Below, piece by piece: positions 1 to 48,594 of a DNA stretch of 64,000 bases. The notes beneath the pieces were generated by a model. It saw only the letters and a list, made by a program, of their open reading frames with translations. It made no database searches and was not told where the DNA came from. A program made the translations under genes and the position numbers. This stretch comes from Minisyncoccota bacterium (GTDB lineage Bacteria; Patescibacteriota; Minisyncoccia; Minisyncoccales; RBG-13-42-11): the NCBI GenBank assembly GCA_016782605.1, contig JADHYE010000003.1, positions 6,852 to 70,851 of the forward strand, in the 5' to 3' direction. The first letter of the stretch is position 1. Every line of letters begins with the position of its first letter.

Positions 1-888
1 GTCAATAATGTCTGCTACTATTTCTAATGCCTGGGCAATGGGCAAACCTCCGGAAATTAAAGTTGAAAGGTTTTCAGCAAAACGGTTGATAAAAATCATT
101 TTGAACAAAGGGCTGAACAAAGGTAACTTGAGCAAAATATTATCAAAAAACCTTCTCCCTTTTTCAGTGCGGTAATATCTCAGGCCAAAAATCACTAAAA
201 AAACAAATATCAGCAAGATCGCTAATCCGAACTGCCTGAAAAATTCAGCTATCGCTATGATAATCTGCGTTATCAAAGGCAGGGTTTCTCCACTAGCTTC
301 CAAAACTTCAGAAAGATGGGGAATAACGAAAAACACCAACAAGGCTAAAATCAGGAAAACGACAAAAAGAACCAGAAGAGGATAAAGCATGGCGCCCTTT
401 ACCCTGCCTAATAAATGATATTCCCTTTCCAAATGCTCTGCTAAATAATCCAAGACTTCGGAAAGCTTTCCGGAAACCTCGCCTGATTTTATCATGGCAA
501 TATAAAAGGAAGAGAAAATGTTGGGATAATTAGACAAAGCGCCAGAAAAAGAGCTGCCGCCTTCCACATCATCCGATATCTTTAAAATCTTTTCTTTGAA
601 CTCAAAACTCTGTGACTGGGAAGAAAGAACTCTCAGGGATTCAACCAAAGGCACCCTGGATCTGAACATAATGGACAGCTGCCGGGAAAACAAAACTACG
701 TCTTTTTGGGAAATTTTCTCAAAAAGCTTTATCCTAGTAGCATAAAAAGGCTGGACCGCTTCTTCCAGAAAAGTGACGTATAAACCGTATTTCTGCAAAA
801 GGTTGATTGCCCCCTCTTTTGAGGAAGCTTCAACCTGGCCAGCTCTAATTTCGCCTGTTTTAGTGCGGACTTGATAGTTGAATTTCAC
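1..888 (-). CDS. pilC: T4P platform protein PilC/GspF family, 5' part (3' end off-window), GTG start
   Basis: Manual minus-strand translation gives (M)KFNYQVRTKTGEIRAGQVEASSKEGAINLLQKYGLYVTFLEE ... FINRFAENLSTLISGGLPIAQALEIVADIID. The frame opens after TAA 907-909 and the only start candidate is GTG 888-886. Confidence 0.85.
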   Translation of the reverse strand, partial: MKFNYQVRTKTGEIRAGQVEASSKEGAINLLQKYGLYVTFLEEAVQPFYATRIKLFEKISQKDVVLFSRQLSIMFRSRVPLVESLRVLSSQSQSFEFKEKILKISDDVEGGSSFSGALSNYPNIFSSFYIAMIKSGEVSGKLSEVLDYLAEHLEREYHLLGRVKGAMLYPLLVLFVVFLILALLVFFVIPHLSEVLEASGETLPLITQIIIAIAEFFRQFGLAILLIFVFLVIFGLRYYRTEKGRRFFDNILLKLPLFSPLFKMIFINRFAENLSTLISGGLPIAQALEIVADIID

Positions 889-1021
889 CCCGTTAGAAGT
901 CTGTCTTTATATGATTAAGACAATCAATTTAAACAGACCTTTATTTATTTGTTATACCCCATTATTGCAGAACAGAAAAAATTTAAATTTAAATTTTTTC
1001 TCTCCAAGACTTCTAACGGGG
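888..1021 (-). mobile_element. 134-bp non-coding TIR element, copy 1 (MITE-like), between pilT stop and pilC start
   Basis: TIRs are CCCCGTTAGAAGTCT (888-902) and AGACTTCTAACGGGG (1007-1021). Direct TTCA flanks lie at 884-887 and 1022-1025. A near-identical copy lies at 25322-25454. Confidence 0.8.
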
Positions 1022-1029
1022 TTCATAAA

Positions 1030-2121
1030 CTATCTTATAAGTATCTTGAGCTCAGAAGGGTTCAAAGAATAATTAAGTGCGTTTTCCAAGGAAATTTCTT
1101 TATTTTTTACCAAATTAGCCAAAGCTCTGTTTAAAGAAACCATTCCTTTTTCCGCAGAAGTTTCAATGACCAAGGGCAGCTCATGTATCTTGTTCTCTCT
1201 AATTAAATTAGCCACAGCCGGCGTAGCCAGCATTATTTCGCAGGCAGGAATCAAGCCTCCTTTTATTCTCGGCACCAAGCGCTGAGAGATTACACCGAGC
1301 AAGGAACCTGACAACTGGGCTCTGACCTGGCCCTGCTGTTCCGGAGGAAAAGAATCAACGATTCTGTGTATGCTCTGGCTGGCAGAATTGGTATGCAAAG
1401 TGGCAAAAACCAGATGCCCGGTTTCAGCAGCTGTAATAGCAATGGCAATTGTTTCAGGGTCCCTCATTTCCCCCACCATGATAACGTCAGGATCCTGGCG
1501 GAAAGTGGAACGAAGCGCCCTGGAAAAACTAAGGGTGTCCTGATAAACCTCTCTCTGGTCAATTATGCTTCTATCGTCTTGGAAAATATATTCAATCGGG
1601 TCTTCAATGGTAATGATATGGTCTTTTCTAGTCCTATTTATCTCGTCTATCAAGGCAGCTAAAGTCGTTGATTTGCCGTGGCTGGAAGGTCCGGTAATTA
1701 AAACAAAGCCTTGGGATGCTTTGGTGAATTCGTGCAAAAGAGGAGGAAGATTCAACTGTTCAATAGTTTTAACTTCTGCTGGCACCTGACGAAGGGCAAT
1801 GGAAATTTCCTCTCTCTGGAAGAAAACGTTAACTCTGAACCTTGCTTTGTCTTCAAAATTATATGAAAAGTCAATTTCTTTCTCTCCTAAAAAGTTTTGA
1901 TACTGTTCAGTATTCATTAAAGCTTTTGTCAGCTCCTGCATGTCGCTTGAAATCAAAACCGGCTCTTTCAAAAGAGGGACCAAAGTGCCTGACACTCTCA
2001 AGACAGGCTGGTGCCCGACCGAAAGATGCAAGTCGGAAGCTTGTTCTTTTATGGTTATCTCAAGGAATTCTTTTAATTTGACTATGTGGTTTCCGTCTAC
2101 GACGTTGGGTGTTTTTTTCAT
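1030..2121 (-). CDS. pilT: twitching-motility (retraction) ATPase PilT
   Basis: 363 aa with Walker A GPSSHGKSTT, EDPIEY, MVGEMRD and TLHTNSA, the PilT-size secretion ATPase pattern. Confidence 0.9.
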   Translation of the reverse strand: MKKTPNVVDGNHIVKLKEFLEITIKEQASDLHLSVGHQPVLRVSGTLVPLLKEPVLISSDMQELTKALMNTEQYQNFLGEKEIDFSYNFEDKARFRVNVFFQREEISIALRQVPAEVKTIEQLNLPPLLHEFTKASQGFVLITGPSSHGKSTTLAALIDEINRTRKDHIITIEDPIEYIFQDDRSIIDQREVYQDTLSFSRALRSTFRQDPDVIMVGEMRDPETIAIAITAAETGHLVFATLHTNSASQSIHRIVDSFPPEQQGQVRAQLSGSLLGVISQRLVPRIKGGLIPACEIMLATPAVANLIRENKIHELPLVIETSAEKGMVSLNRALANLVKNKEISLENALNYSLNPSELKILIR

Positions 2122-5791: not shown

Positions 5792-6886
5792 TTAGTATTC
5801 CAAACCTCTTAAAGCTGTTCCGACAGCTATGGAATAGCCGGGTCCCATTTCTTTTAACTTTTCTTCCAAAATGGGAGGGTAAAAAATATTCGTAAAAGGA
5901 TTGGCAATTTCCACTTCCTTGTTTAAGGTTTCTTCAAAATACTCTTTTAACCCTGGAAGCAGAGCCGTACCGCCGGCAATTATCACCTTTTGGATTTCTT
6001 TTTTCTCCTGCTGATAAAAAGTATTGCATATTCCCTGGACCTCTCTCAGAATAACATCGATCAAGGGAAGAAGTATTGATCTAATATTTTGAACGTTTTG
6101 CCCTTCTTCAACAGTTAAGGGCCTTATGCCGTATTGCCTCTTTATTTTCTCAGCTTTAGCAAAACCAATACTCAAAGATTGGGCAACCATTGAAGTAAAA
6201 TCATCTCCTGACGTATCAAAGCTGTGAGAACTTTTTAAGGCTCTTTTATCGACAATAGTACAGGTAGTGCTTTGCGCCCCGATATCTATTAAAGCAATTG
6301 GTCTTTTTTCTTCTTCTCCTACTAAAGCTCTCATCAAGCTGAAAGCTTCCGCTTCCAAGGAAAACAATTCCATTTGGGAAAGCTTGGCAATCTCCTGGTA
6401 CTGGCTTATTATTTCGTTGGGAGCAGCTACCAAAAGAATTTTGAATCCTTTTTTCCCGTTAGCTAATGGCTTATCACCAATTATCTGCCAGTCAAGGGTT
6501 ACCTCTGATAAAGGAAGGGGAATATATTGCTTAGCTTCGTATTTAATGGCCTGGGGCAGTTCTTCCCTGGTCATTGACGGCAAATTGAAATTAGTGAAAA
6601 AAGTAGAAAAATCGGGAATGGAAAAAACCACTTTCTGAGTTTTAATGCCAGCTTCCTCTTTGACCGCCTTTATCGCTTTAGCAACGTCTTTATTGGAAAG
6701 AGATAAGGTATTTTTATCAAATGTTCTGAATGGCTTGTCGTAAAAAACAGAAGCGGAAATCTGACCGTAATTCTCCAATTTTCTCTGGTGGCCGAACCTA
6801 TACATTTCCACCATCTTAACGTAAGAAGTGCCAATATCTATTCCTAAGAATTTTCTGGGCAGCAATGCCTGAATGAAATTCCACAT
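5792..6886 (-). CDS. pilM: T4P assembly ATPase-fold protein PilM
   Basis: 364 aa with actin-like motifs GIDIGTSYVKMVE, IDIGAQSTT and IIAGGTALLPGL. Confidence 0.85.
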   Translation of the reverse strand: MWNFIQALLPRKFLGIDIGTSYVKMVEMYRFGHQRKLENYGQISASVFYDKPFRTFDKNTLSLSNKDVAKAIKAVKEEAGIKTQKVVFSIPDFSTFFTNFNLPSMTREELPQAIKYEAKQYIPLPLSEVTLDWQIIGDKPLANGKKGFKILLVAAPNEIISQYQEIAKLSQMELFSLEAEAFSLMRALVGEEEKRPIALIDIGAQSTTCTIVDKRALKSSHSFDTSGDDFTSMVAQSLSIGFAKAEKIKRQYGIRPLTVEEGQNVQNIRSILLPLIDVILREVQGICNTFYQQEKKEIQKVIIAGGTALLPGLKEYFEETLNKEVEIANPFTNIFYPPILEEKLKEMGPGYSIAVGTALRGLEY

Positions 6887-22838: not shown

Positions 22839-25322
22839 TTATGTGCAGGTTACTGAGGCAACTTTGTCACCTTGTTCCAGCCTTATTAATCTTACTCCCT
22901 GGGCTGAACGGGAGAGCTTTGGAATTTGGGAAATATTAGTCCTGATAACCTGTCCTTTTTGCGAAATGACGATCAAATCCTCTTCTTCCGGACCGATAAC
23001 TCTGGAAGCGATAATATTGCCTGTTTTCGGATTTACGTTTCCGGTTTTGATTCCAGACCCGCCCCTGCCCTGAGTTTTGTATTCTTTAACGTCGGTTCTT
23101 TTGCCAAATCCGTTTTCCGAAATAATCAGCAAATAGTTCTGCGTTTTTTCTTTCTGCTCCTGGGAAGCGATTACGTCTACAGCCACTACTTCGTCTCCCT
23201 TTCTAAGCCTTATCCCTTTGATGCCGGAGGCAGTCCTGCCCATTGCTCTGATCTCCTTTTCTTGGAAACAAATGGACTGGCCTTTTTTGGTAACGAGCAG
23301 TATCTTGTCCTGGCCGGTGGTCTTCTGGACGTTCTTGAGCTCGTCTCCCTTTTTCAAAGAAATGGCGATCAATCCTGACTTCCTGATATTTTCAAAGTCC
23401 TCCAAAGGAGTTTTCTTGATTATACCATTCTTGGTAGCCATTATTAAATATTTTATGCCCTGTTCCTGGTCCAATTTACTGATCGTTCTAAGGCATAATA
23501 TCTTGTCCTGGGGAGTGATTTCAAGAAAATTCAAAAGGCCCCTGCCCCTGGCCACTCTCTGGCCTTCCGGTATTTCGTAAACCTGGGTGCAGAAAACTTT
23601 CCCAGAATCAGTGAAAAAGAGCAGAGAATCGTGGGTTTGGGCTGCCAAGAAATGTTCTACTACGTCGTCCTGAAGAGTTTTCATGCCCATAATTCCCTTG
23701 CCGCCCCTTTTCTGGATTTTGTAGGTTCTCGGATTGATTCTTTTAATGTATCCTCCCTGGGTCAGGGTGATTATCGTTTCTTCCTGAGGAATTAAATCTT
23801 CCTCGGCAATTTCTCCTATTTTCTGGCTGTGCACCTTTGTCCTTCTTTCGTCCCCGAAATTATCCTTGACCTCTTTTATTTCTTTCTTAACAACTGATTT
23901 TATCTTTTGGGGACTCTTTAGGATTTCAATAAGCTCTTTGATTTTGAGTTTTAATTCTTTTAATTCGTCCTCAATCTTCTTTCTCTCCAGTTTGGCTAAA
24001 GCAGAAAGCTTAGTTTCCAAAATAGCGTTTGCCTGGATCTTTGTCAGTTTAAATCTTTTTATTAAATTCTTTTCTGCATCTTCCCTGTTGGCAGAATTCT
24101 TAATGGTCTTAATCACCTCATCAATATTGGCCAGGCACTTGTGCAAGCCTTCTAAAATATGGGCTCTTTCTTTAGCTTTTTCCAGGTCATGCTTTATCCT
24201 TCTGGTGATTACCTGAATGCGATGGCTGATGAAATAACTGAGCATCTCAGCCAAACTCAAAACTCTCGGCTGGATTTCATCTACCAAAGCCAGCATGTTC
24301 AAGTGAAACGTTTTTTGGAGGTCAGTGAATTTGTAAAGCCTGTTAAGAACCTTCTGGGGATAAGCGTCTCGCGAAAGCTCAATAACAATCCTCATTCCTT
24401 CTTTATCAGATTCGTCCCTGATGTCTTTTATGCCTTCTATCTTCTTTTCCTGAACCAAGGCAGCAAATTGTTCAATTAGAGTTGATTTTTGCACCTGGTA
24501 GGGAATTTCTGTAATGATGATGCGCTGCCTGCCTGTTTTTTCCTGTTCCATTACCTCTGCTTTTCCCCTGGCAACAATTGGCCCCTTGCCCTGGGAATAA
24601 GCCTCAATTATCCCTTTCTGGTCAAAAATTATACCGCCTGTCGGGAAATCAGGTCCCTGGATAAACTTAAAGAGTTCCTCAGTATCTGCTTTCGGTTTTT
24701 CAATCAAATAAATCAAAGCATCGCAAACTTCTGATAAGTTATGGGTGAGGATATTGGTTGCCATACCAACAGCAATACCCAAAGAACCGTTCAATAGAAG
24801 CTGGGGAACGGGCGAAGGCAAAACAGTCGGCTCTTTTCTCGTTCCGTCAAAGTTTTCAACGAAATTAACCGTATCTTTCTCAATGTCTTTTAGCATTTCC
24901 TCACCAATTTTTGACAGACGGCATTCAGTGTACCGCATGGCAGCCGGCGGATCGTTGTCAATGGAACCGAAATTGCCCTGGCCGTTAATCAAGGGATATC
25001 TCAAAGAAAAATCCTGAGCCATTCTTGCTAAAGCATCATAAAGAGCCATATCTCCATGAGGATGATAGCGTCCCAAGCAGCTTCCGACAACCGTAGCTGA
25101 TTTCCTAAACTTGGCATTGTGTCTCAGTCCTTCTTCCAGGGTCGTATACAGAATGCGCCGATGAACAGGTTTTAAGCCATCTCTGACATCAGGCAAAGCC
25201 CTAGAAACAATAACTGACATGGCATAGTTAATATAAGACTCCCTCATCTCTTCAGTTATTTCCCGAGGCTTGATAAGGCCGATTTTGCTGTTTTCAGTTT
25301 TTAAATTATTGTTCTTCTTCAC
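22839..25322 (-). CDS. gyrA: DNA gyrase subunit A, GTG start
   Basis: [27 protein letters not shown], active-site region AAMRYTE and C-terminal beta-pinwheel repeats. The GTG start is formed at the TIR element boundary. Confidence 0.95.
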
Positions 25323-25454
25323 CCCGTTAGAAGTCTGTCTTTATATGATTAAAACAATCAATTTAAACAGACCTTTGTTTATTGATTATATTCCCGTTGA
25401 TATCTCGCAGAAAAAATGTATTTAAATTTTTTCTGCCAAAGACTTCTAACGGGG
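25322..25454 (-). mobile_element. 133-bp non-coding TIR element, copy 2, between a small ORF and the gyrA start
   Basis: TIRs at 25322-25336 and 25440-25454, with direct TTCA at 25318-25321 and 25455-25458. The gene-proximal ~62 nt differ from copy 1 at 2 positions. Confidence 0.8.
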
Positions 25455-25469
25455 TTCATAATTAATGTC

Positions 25470-25670
25470 CTACATATTGAAGTCCGGCATTTCCAAATTG
25501 GGCAGGTTCAATTCCTCTTTTATATCTTCTGCCTTGAAATTTCCTAACTTATTCTGGACTTTTTTTGACCAGAAAAACAAGAGCGCCAAGCCAAGAACAA
25601 TCACTGTTGCCCAGAGAATAATCTTTTTCTTGGATTCTGGCAGTTTTTGGATTTTTTCAATAATGTCCAC
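25470..25670 (-). CDS. small single-pass membrane protein
   Basis: 66 aa with one TM helix (ILWATVIVLGLALLFFW). Confidence 0.35.
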   Translation of the reverse strand: MDIIEKIQKLPESKKKIILWATVIVLGLALLFFWSKKVQNKLGNFKAEDIKEELNLPNLEMPDFNM

Positions 25671-25679
25671 GGATTGATA

Positions 25680-29770: not shown

Positions 29771-29771
29771 C

Positions 29772-30386
29772 ATGAGAACTATTTACGAAGACCAAGAGTT
29801 ACTGGTGATTGATAAGCCCGCTGGGATAAACTCAGACGACTTTCAAAAAAGAGTCCACCGATTAGATAAAGACACTTCAGGAGTGCTTTTAATCGCAAAA
29901 AATGACGATATTTTGAAATTCCTCCAAAAGCAGTTCAAAGAAAGGAATGTTGTTAAAAAATACCTTACCTTAGTTGTCGGTAAATTGGAAAATACAGAAG
30001 GAGAGATAGAAACCTTGATAGGACGCTCGCCAGCAGACAGAAAAAAGCAGAAAATATACCTAATCGGAGAGCCTAATTCTGAAGGTAAAAGAACAGCTGT
30101 CACCAAGTACAAAGTATTGCAAAGATTCAAAGATTATGATTTCATTGAAGTTGAGCCGAAAACCGGCAGAAAACACCAGATCAGAACTCATTTTGTTTAT
30201 CTTAACCACCCAATTGCCGGAGACAAAATGTACGGATTCAAAGGCCAGCTTTTGCCGAAAGGCTTAAAAAGGCACTTCCTACACGCATCTTATCTGAAGA
30301 TAAAATTGCCAAACGGTCGAGAAATAGAATTCAAATCAGAATTACCCGATGATTTAAAAACAATATTAAATAAATTAAAACGATGA
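29772..30386 (+). CDS. RluA-family pseudouridine synthase (catalytic domain only)
   Basis: HRLDKDTSGVLLIAK, with catalytic Asp; 204 aa. Confidence 0.85.
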   Translation: MRTIYEDQELLVIDKPAGINSDDFQKRVHRLDKDTSGVLLIAKNDDILKFLQKQFKERNVVKKYLTLVVGKLENTEGEIETLIGRSPADRKKQKIYLIGEPNSEGKRTAVTKYKVLQRFKDYDFIEVEPKTGRKHQIRTHFVYLNHPIAGDKMYGFKGQLLPKGLKRHFLHASYLKIKLPNGREIEFKSELPDDLKTILNKLKR

Positions 30387-48414: not shown

Positions 48415-48594
48415 CGGGACATAGTGTAACGGTAGCACGAATCCTTCTTGCCCCGTTAGAAATAACGGAGAGTAGTGTAATGGTAGCACGAGTCCTTTGG
48501 GAGGATTTAGTTCGGGTTCGAATCCCGCCTCTCCGAAAGAATTTCTAACGGGGTGAAGGAGGATTTAGTTCCAGTTCAAATCTGGATGCCCCGA
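48415..48594 (+). other. interrupted Pro-like tRNA gene (outer) carrying a 100-nt insert in its anticodon arm
   Basis: The 5' part is CGGGACA-TA-GTGT..GCAC-G-AATCC (48415-48444). The 3' part is GGATT-TAGT-TCCAG-TTCAAAT-CTGGA-TGCCCCG-A (48561-48594). The body closely matches the inner tRNA-Pro. Confidence 0.6.
48466..48536 (+). tRNA. tRNA-Pro(TGG), nested between 13-bp inverted repeats
   Basis: Acceptor CGGAGAG/CTCTCCG (C1:G72, A73), loop TTTGGGA. Flanked by CCCCGTTAGAAAT (48451-48463) and ATTTCTAACGGGG (48541-48553). Confidence 0.85.

Follow-up and report, generated by a model that had tools for sequence, protein, structure and literature searches.

A miniature inverted-repeat element at the pilC start codon of a Patescibacteria genome, and the concentration of its family at gene starts

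The stretch of DNA analysed here (64,000 nucleotides, referred to as the window) belongs to contig JADHYE010000003.1 of a Minisyncoccota bacterium (assembly GCA_016782605.1), and within it the first codon of pilC, which encodes a type IV pilus platform protein, is occupied by a 134-bp element that carries terminal inverted repeats (TIRs) and is flanked by two copies of TGAA. With a probability of roughly 0.7, this element is a recently inserted cut-and-paste MITE (miniature inverted-repeat transposable element), of a family whose concentration on start codons is driven by survivorship together with the adaptation of one subfamily. For this subfamily of ~130 bp, impact on a start codon is the rule and not an accident. 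The features at the pilT-pilC junction are the following.

888..1021, minus strand: copy 1 of the element, non-autonomous, 134 bp, oriented with the pilC coding strand
888..902: pilC-proximal TIR arm, CCCCGTTAGAAGTCT on the plus strand and AGACTTCTAACGGGG on the coding strand; the new GTG begins with its final G
1007..1021: pilT-proximal TIR arm, CCCCGTTAGAAGTCT on the coding strand, the exact reverse complement of 888-902
884..887, minus strand: gene-side copy of the target-site duplication (TSD), TGAA on the coding strand (TTCA on the plus strand), which gives the TG of the GTG and the first A of codon 2
1022..1025, minus strand: upstream copy of the TSD, TGAA on the coding strand (TTCA on the plus strand), which together with A1026 is the orphaned original ATGAA
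886..888, minus strand: regenerated pilC GTG, placed by frame analysis, gene callers and homologue starts
1024..1026, minus strand: original pilC ATG, 3 nt past the pilT stop, which now opens a 25-codon open reading frame (ORF) ending within the element
1..888, minus strand: 5' part of pilC (PF00482, PF28597), continuing beyond the window edge
1030..2121, minus strand: pilT-type ATPase gene (PF00437), its stop TAG at 1032-1030 intact despite the insertion

On the coding strand, the junctions from the pilT stop into pilC read TAG TTT A-TGAA-[CCCC..GGGG]-TGAA-ATTCAAC. The original prediction, made from the letters of the window alone, had described perfect 15-bp TIRs flanked by TTCA/TGAA, and these are all in place at the coordinates listed above; the inverted repeat reaches 16 bp when A887/T1022 are counted, overlapping the duplication by one base. 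The sequence also agrees with the predicted reading frame: the pilC frame is closed by a TAA at 909-907 and reopens only after it (..SNG-V-KFNYQV), with a GTG at 888-886 that arises from the last G of the element and the TG of the duplicated TGAA. A PilC of 400 aa is called from this GTG by NCBI and by other gene callers (P0121), and 119 of the 120 PilC homologues examined start at the GTG position, with the pattern M/V, K/R/N, F/Y/L, NYQ (M/V-K/R in 118, MNYNYQ in one). The claim that GTG is the sole pilC start was thus partly upheld: judged from these N-termini, it is the only start that would preserve the conserved beginning of PilC, and a TTG located 30 codons downstream was used by one gene caller (a 370-aa call in L245; P0127).

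The insertion can be read directly from relatives that lack it. It had been predicted that removal of the element restores an ATG-initiated pilC in the form TAG-TTT-ATGAAATTCAAC, and this is the sequence found in relatives with 92-99% identical PilC. In the alignment, the empty site TAGTTTATGAAATTCAAC, which equals the window sequence minus 134 bp and minus one TGAA, occurs in five contigs, namely L252 (PilC 99% identical), L247, L248 and L249 (97%), and L250 (92%), and the same five contain the predicted empty site TTTATGAAATTC. The pilC site is likewise empty in the close relative GCA_964481125.1, and copy 1 is identical in three contigs that share an identical PilT. The occupied contigs originate from ENA ERZ24794676 and ERZ24794672, and relatives with the empty site are contained in JGI 3300028191. 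Empty and occupied sites differ by the element and one TGAA only, in agreement with the MITE-like insertion and 4-bp target duplication that had been proposed.

Further copies had been expected as well, and besides hundreds in other genomes a second one is present in the window, at the start of gyrA.

25322..25454, minus strand: second full copy (copy 2), 133 bp, occupying the start codon of gyrA in the same orientation as copy 1
25318-25321 and 25455-25458: the TGAA TSD flanking copy 2
25322-25320, minus strand: new GTG of gyrA, whose ORF (22839-25322) is GTG-initiated

The gyrA junction reads TTATGAA[CCCC..GGGG]TGAAGAAGAAC. Copy 2 has the same TIR arms as copy 1. Aligned together with their flanks, copies 1 and 2 have a mean column identity of 89%, and their gene-proximal 66 nt are 97% identical. 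A GTG followed by AA is not otherwise seen among the 67 rough gene calls of the window, 54 of which begin with ATG. Empty gyrA sites were found in relatives with GyrA identities of 99% (L003) and 93% (L001), both reading TTATGAAGAAGAA, and of 90% (L002), reading CTATGAAGAAGAA; relatives are empty at all three occupied sites of the window, i.e., pilC, gyrA, and a tRNA-Pro gene that is described below. The view that the 134 bp are not an insertion at all and represent an ancestral intergenic hairpin lost from the relatives has in its favour that the element is present in all contigs with an identical PilT, and nothing else. It is refuted by the pilC and gyrA empty sites, since these are exact, retain one TGAA and come from several lineages at 92-99% identity, and the same element is found at unrelated loci, each with its own duplications and empty sites. 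The absence of any empty site or other copy, which the original prediction had named as the outcome that would speak against it, was not encountered, as both exist.

The family to which both copies belong is large. A scan with the 14-mer GACTTCTAACGGGG, in which each species was represented by a single genome, gave at least 120 stretches; among the matches listed and in three relatives, 73 TIR pairs spanning 44-366 bp were recognized, most of them with a variable 4-bp direct repeat (e.g., TGAA, TTCA, TTGA, TCAA, TAAA, TTTA, TATA, TCTA, CATG, TATG, TGGA). Another 122 copies were obtained from 120 metagenome loci that were retrieved by a 17-mer at the gene-proximal element end, a selection that is blind to the flanks. 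Altogether, >190 family copies are known outside the window, which itself holds two full copies and one cassette. The family termini are CCCCGTTAGAAGTC...GACTTCTAACGGGG, the shared ends also being written CCCCGTTAGAA...TTCTAACGGGG, and a core of 11-14 nt is common to all family members. In the window, the 15-mer CCCCGTTAGAAGTCT has four exact matches (two pairs) and, with up to three mismatches, seven matches vs 1.42 +/- 1.22 in shuffled sequences (maximum 4), which rules out chance. Hosts among the matches listed are Patescibacteria (Nealson-, Jorgensen-, Staskawicz-, Kaiser-, Komeili- and Uhrbacteria, and Kazan) and metagenome-assembled genomes (MAGs) labelled Planctomycetota, Omnitrophota, Nitrospirota and Elusimicrobia.

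The element has TIRs, a TSD of fixed length (4 bp), dispersed and polymorphic copies, and no transposase of its own, the ORFs inside its 134 bp being short and not conserved; it is a MITE by every testable criterion except an identified partner. The search for a transposase-bearing parent with the same TIR, which the original prediction had advised, covered the window, 2.3 Mb of further loci and viral contigs and found none, the viral contigs giving single chance matches only. Where long TIR pairs had duplications that matched, they were resolved as two distinct MITEs (L129, L176, L056) or as ordinary genes (L092). Rfam gave no match to the element at gathering or permissive thresholds, and text searches returned nothing relevant on the terminal sequence or on MITEs in Patescibacteria in the collection of literature searched. 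An integron attC site was considered as well, as the arms contain GTT..AAC-like cores; this was rejected in view of the 4-mer duplications, which vary from copy to copy, and of the position of the sites at core-gene junctions.

The interior of the element has a conserved architecture. On the gene strand, 5' to 3', the consensus of 95 copies consists of a TIR, the palindromic hairpin HP1 (GGCAGAAAAA..TTTTTCTGCC), AACGGGG followed by TATAAT, an A-rich tract, the nested hairpin HP2 (GTCTGTCT...AGACAGAC), and the second TIR. In copy 1, HP1 is located as follows.

974..1001, either strand: HP1 of copy 1, a perfect 28-nt palindrome AGAAAAAATTTAAATTTAAATTTTTTCT, found as a self-inverse match

When 40 family copies were folded as single sequences, every copy inspected contained HP1, with stems that vary in a compensating manner (GGCAACAAGAAAGTG/CACTTTCTTGTTGC, GGCGTAAAAAATTT/AAATTTTTTACGC, GTGAAAAAATTTTA/TAAAATTTTTTCAC). 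Single sequences were folded because indels in the loops put the inner hairpins out of alignment in the raw MAFFT output, from which RNAalifold obtains the TIR stem alone. Copy 1 folds with its flanks at -52.8 kcal/mol (z = -8.1). The native pilT-pilC junction (window 1020-1040 and 870-885, minus strand) has itself the potential for a hairpin of 7 bp (GAUAGUU/AACUAUC) whose loop holds the AUG, and in the occupied allele these arms lengthen the TIR stem.

Start codons are where most copies of the ~130-bp subfamily reside. Among the 76 copies with a perfect 4-bp TSD, 48 are start-linked in the orientation seen in the window, 5 are start-linked in the reverse orientation and 23 lie elsewhere, so that 53/76 clean-TSD copies of this Patescibacteria subfamily are located exactly on a start codon. 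When the 87 copies with flanks of at least 200 nt are considered, a long ORF starts at -1 to +1 of the gene-proximal end in 56, and at the opposite end in 6. The 77 start-linked copies cover 69 distinct genes, many of them essential; from a reading of the translated N-termini, made in place of a homology search, these resemble ribosomal proteins (S2, L3, L11, L13, L17, L24, L29, L35, L36) as well as GroES, SSB, TrpRS, ClpB, UvrA, topoisomerase I (TopA), RecG, SecG, MurB and UppS. Two registers occur, namely TGNN duplications, in which the last G of the element completes a GTG, and TATG duplications, in which the ATG is duplicated in full, and in both classes the start codon lies within 0-1 nt after GGGG. 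The explanation given in the original prediction, that the insertion would be tolerated because the element end regenerates a GTG, is strongly backed by this pattern at 69 genes.

This enrichment is real under every null model that was built. The window is 88.8% coding by a rough gene map and offers 76 intergenic TGAA/TTCA sites vs 19 ATGAA starts. If TGAA is the target and only non-disruptive insertions survive, ~21% of the TGAA-flanked copies are expected at starts, with orientations at 50:50, vs 35/38 observed at starts (p = 8e-21) and an observed orientation ratio of 48:5 (p = 7e-10). A strict ATGAA target raises the expectation to 51%, and a loose T..A target, as suggested by the non-start copies, lowers it to a few percent. 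Short copies in hosts other than Patescibacteria are never start-linked (0/20), vs 20/34 of the copies of 100-170 bp in the group of Patescibacteria and unassigned loci; this argues against a start bias that comes from the termini or the transposase alone, and the bias therefore follows the internal module and/or the architecture of the host genome. Copies of a minor recurrent class with a TTGA duplication (L143, L188, L210, L238) adjoin TTGAC or TTGAT on their gene-proximal side, regenerating a -35-like hexamer at the element end, which fits the logic of a duplication that preserves a signal.

Expression across the element was considered from both strands. One feature of copy 1 is specific to the strand antisense to pilC.

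899..951, plus strand: hairpin GTCTGT..ACAGAC(C) and then TTTATTTATTTG, resembling a terminator in the antisense reading only

Both window copies have this antisense structure (GUCUGU..ACAGACC, -8.3 kcal/mol, followed by UUUAUUU or UUUGUUU). In a relaxed custom scan, a hairpin with a U-tract was detected on the antisense strand of 39/95 copies and on the sense strand of 1/95; a stricter terminator scan detected none in either window copy. Given this signal, a copy inserted in reverse would terminate sense transcription, and the polarity of the reverse orientation would account directly for the 48:5 bias, since the insertion step itself, with symmetric TIRs, cannot give rise to one. A simple sigma-70 scan gave no gene-strand promoter in either window copy, for which reason read-through from upstream is the default assumption. 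An outward promoter in the element was likewise rejected, since the window copies have no gene-strand sigma-70 match and the consensus combines TATAAT with a poor -35.

Initiation in these genomes may depend little on the sequence that the element displaces. Shine-Dalgarno (SD)-like motifs precede only 12% of 358 background genes (loci L124-L243) and 9/51 of the occupied sites, and their rarity implies that the 138-nt shift of the start away from its former upstream sequence may cost little. In the same background genes, TATAAT-like hexamers are enriched 6-9 nt upstream of the ATG, and the two results together suggest that leaderless or SD-independent mRNAs are numerous in these Patescibacteria. 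Several translational scenarios were rejected on related grounds. A hairpin that bridges the native SD to the new start, in the manner of T4 gene 38, cannot be a general mechanism when SD-like motifs are so rare, and targeting of open complexes at leaderless promoters is contradicted by -10-like boxes not being enriched at occupied sites. The ORF opened by the old ATG stops inside the element in 94/95 copies, and its 7-43 codons are not conserved, which rules out a conserved leader peptide from the orphaned ATG. A bypass of the T4 gene 60 type finds AUG and GUG with a shared UGAA, yet no stop follows the AUG and the upstream ORF is unconserved.

The favoured explanation combines survivorship in compact genomes with adaptation of the subfamily. 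At pilC, insertion at A|TGAA of the start codon, presumably through a 4-bp staggered cut, duplicated TGAA, and the last G of the element with the following TG makes up an in-frame GTG in place of the ATG, with the PilC sequence unchanged and the pilT stop untouched; gyrA underwent the same event. Upstream transcription would read through the sense-oriented element, which lacks the terminator-like hairpin on that strand, and the opposite orientation would expose this hairpin, be polar, and be selected against. Ribosomes would then start at the new GTG, the loss of upstream context probably being cheap as SD-like motifs are rare. In very compact genomes, loosely targeted insertions whose duplication rebuilds the start and whose orientation is non-polar may be among the few that spare both neighbouring genes, so that the concentration at starts would be mostly survivorship, with a possible share of true target preference, and the internal module of the ~130-bp subfamily may have become adapted to the start-codon niche.

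Several observations weigh against this explanation. Survivorship must account for an excess of at least 10- to 20-fold over intergenic sites, and intergenic copies should be no more harmful than copies on start codons. The terminator-like signal invoked for the orientation bias is detectable in just 41% of copies, a stem of 15-16 bp that ends in the start codon should impede initiation if it forms in the mRNA, one gene caller preferred the downstream TTG of pilC, and the autonomous parent is missing from all sequences searched. Survivorship with subfamily adaptation is still favoured, and it is the size of the excess that keeps active targeting of start sites alive. There, the machinery would recognize a feature of translation or transcription starts and selection would trim orientation and register; this is unlikely overall, despite the 92% of TGAA-flanked copies observed at starts vs 21% or 51% expected, the 71% of all copies on a start codon vs the few percent of the loose-target model, and the TTGA class, whose adjoining -35-like TTGAC (L143, L188, L210, L238) points to promoter or start regions. 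A recognized start feature is difficult to reconcile with a register that varies relative to the ATG (TATG vs TGNN duplications), with sequence logos that contain no conserved motif besides ATGAA, with -10-like boxes at leaderless distance in 7/62 occupied vs 60/348 background sites, and with short members that share the termini and are start-linked in 0/20 cases in other phyla, and the orientation cannot be set by symmetric TIRs alone.

Positive selection of the ~130-bp subfamily as an expression module, acting as a block to antisense or upstream transcription, as a structured leader or standby site, or as a promoter, is also rather improbable. The constant orientation, the conserved architecture (HP1, AACGGGG then TATAAT, A-rich tract, HP2), the restriction of the terminator-like signal to the antisense strand, the -10-like boxes that many copies have at 53-62 nt upstream from the new start, and the restriction of start linkage to this subfamily would all be expected of such a module. 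Yet neither window copy has a gene-strand sigma-70 promoter, the consensus -35 matches at 3/6 positions only, window copy 1 has TATAAC and not TATAAT, close relatives thrive without the insertions, and it is implausible that each of 69 unrelated housekeeping genes benefits. Very improbable is removal or bypass at the RNA level, either through excision of the hairpin and ligation of the ends or through ribosomes that initiate at the old AUG and shunt or hop across the hairpin base, so that the original start would in effect stay in use. The TIR stem does join the old AUGAA to the new GUGAA in a very stable fold with UGAA on both sides, the orphaned AUG retains its native context, and a tRNA gene that encloses a TIR-bounded cassette shows covarying stems in two distant lineages; a removable element should, however, be tolerated anywhere in a coding sequence, whereas this one is confined to starts and the start is always rebuilt, no ribozyme or intron family matches it, no splice variant of the interrupted tRNA yields a canonical Pro anticodon loop, and no upstream ORF is conserved. 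A self-splicing intron or IStron was excluded in the same way, as Rfam scans gave no group I/II ribozyme core and 134 nt are too small. A tentative reading, possible though doubtful, is that the ~130-bp subfamily is a transposon specialised for translation starts, either by homing to starts or as a harmless portable gene-front cassette, the latter comprising an antisense terminator and a structured leader, with the last base of the cassette completing the start codon.

Among known systems, the nearest functional analogues are the Correia/NEMIS elements and the Rickettsia palindromic elements (RPE), neither of which is known to sit on start codons. Correia/NEMIS elements of Neisseria are bacterial MITEs that are co-transcribed with genes, duplicate TA, and are intergenic at variable distances from genes. 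The present family resembles them in its size of ~100-150 bp, TIRs that form a long stem in the transcript, a TSD, many copies beside genes, presence/absence polymorphism among strains, and effects on the expression of neighbouring genes; it differs in its 4-bp TSD and in that ~70% of the ~130-bp subfamily is on a start codon, in one orientation, with the codon rebuilt. RPE are translated as in-frame peptide inserts. They are similarly small palindromic mobile elements tolerated in essential genes of reduced genomes, whereas the window copies are not translated into protein, contain in-frame stops, and sit at the start-codon boundary. Three loci are of note in this context: a short family member lies in frame within a beta-glucosidase-like ORF at L092 ~824-900 (..DPVRSLARAKGASTEDHGEAKSNGVA..), resembling RPE; a reverse-oriented start-linked copy at L129 3430-3560 is open in frame, element and duplication making up 45 codons, and gene callers extend the protein through it (MNPVRSL...KTSNGV), possibly an annotation artefact or a real N-terminal extension; and a second reverse-oriented copy is present at L129 563-693.

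Some mobile elements that integrate into tRNA genes carry along a tRNA segment as a replacement, and the third occupied site of the window is reminiscent of these.

48451..48553, plus strand: TIR-bounded cassette, 103 bp, with 11-bp arms CCCCGTTAGAA/TTCTAACGGGG, in the anticodon loop of a tRNA-Pro gene
48451-48465 and 48539-48553: TIR pair of the cassette, bounding a tRNA-Pro(TGG) gene
48466-48536, plus strand: complete tRNA-Pro(TGG) in the cassette, differing from the interrupted gene
48415..48450, plus strand: 5' half of the resident tRNA-Pro
48554..48594, plus strand: 3' half of the resident tRNA-Pro, starting with TGAA

Like such elements, the cassette splits a resident gene, here tRNA-Pro(TGG), and has a complete tRNA-Pro(TGG) of its own; unlike them, it is TIR-bounded, tiny, without integrase, and in the anticodon loop and not at the 3' end. 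At the corresponding locus downstream of RNase Y, the 98%-related genome GCA_964481125.1 (L312) has a single intact tRNA-Pro(TGG), so that the anticodon loop TTTGGGA of the relative corresponds to TTCTTG[103-bp cassette]TGAAGGA in the window, and these junctions are not a simple 4-bp duplication. The outer tRNA-Pro of the window has acquired two substitutions, one of which makes an A·C mismatch in the acceptor stem. The same nesting, with identical TTCTTG/TGAAGGA junctions and covarying outer stems, recurs in a distant Paceibacterota MAG (L063). Splicing of the interrupted tRNA was rejected: ARAGORN accepts the tRNA body in all 52 variants called, and none restores a Pro anticodon loop. The cassette looks like a cargo-carrying relative of the family that disrupts a tRNA gene while supplying a spare.

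A relation to piggyBac and IS1380 is a lead only. The piggyBac elements duplicate TTAA, with variants TAAA, TCAA, TTAG and TATG, their TIRs show the motifs CCCTT, CCCTC and CCCAT, and IS1380 transposases are used as the prokaryotic outgroup (PMC10813416). Shared with the present family are a 4-bp TSD with a T-rich first and an A-rich last base, and TIRs that start with CC(C). Its TSD is, in contrast, far more variable than TTAA, which is found in 1/76 copies, TGAA, TATG, TGAG, TTGA and TCAA being dominant, and no transposase of any kind was found beside the termini in the sequences searched. Because its target differs from TTAA and no transposase turned up, the family was not assigned to piggyBac/IS1380.

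Other observations were made at sites related to those above. Relatives have a small ORF of 74-77 aa that extends over the start of gyrA (window region 25463-25679, minus strand); its window counterpart is cut short by 10 codons through a TAG (25470-25472, minus strand; CAG in relatives), just upstream of the element, and without this TAG its C-terminus would extend into the insertion. Many close GyrA homologues (P0016, P0043, P0052 and others) are 1225-1304 aa long and contain intein/LAGLIDADG domains, none of which occur in the window gyrA, and in L003 (4622-8478) the 99% identical gyrA is called as two genes that flank an intein/LAGLIDADG-type insert. The 93% relative L001 has an 82-bp family member (5798-5879) between tRNA-Val and an rluA-like gene, whose called start is an ATG inside the element, with the TIR arm translated (MEISNGVKIIYED); the homologous window site (29771-29780) is empty, its ATG overlapping the tRNA 3' end (CCCACATGAGAACT). 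Finally, in L310 (2867-3003; PilC 67% identical) the pilT-pilC junction has a different insert of 131 nt, rich in direct repeats and located between ATGA and GTGAAATTC, and pilC is again GTG-initiated there, so that start-codon insertions that regenerate a GTG may be made by more than one element family.

What happened at pilC exemplifies a habit of the family as a whole. Of a transposon one expects that it avoids essential genes or destroys them, and here a family sits on the first codons of ribosomal-protein, tRNA-synthetase, gyrase and pilus genes that are apparently still working. For transposon biology, the question is whether the start codon is a target or the last safe harbour in a genome that is ~89% coding. 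Annotation is affected, as the elements are places where GTG starts cluster together with truncated gene calls and spurious extensions of the N-terminus, and the insertions can be used as strain-level markers. If the subfamily were indeed a specialised transposon, a selfish element would have a niche of its own, in streamlined Patescibacteria, at the start codons of essential genes, precise excision in the style of piggyBac would restore the ATG, and the tRNA-Pro cassette would be a cargo variant that breaks an essential tRNA gene while supplying its replacement. The copies also amount to a natural experiment on translation initiation in Patescibacteria, in which SD-like motifs are rare and a 130-nt hairpin is placed directly before the start codon.

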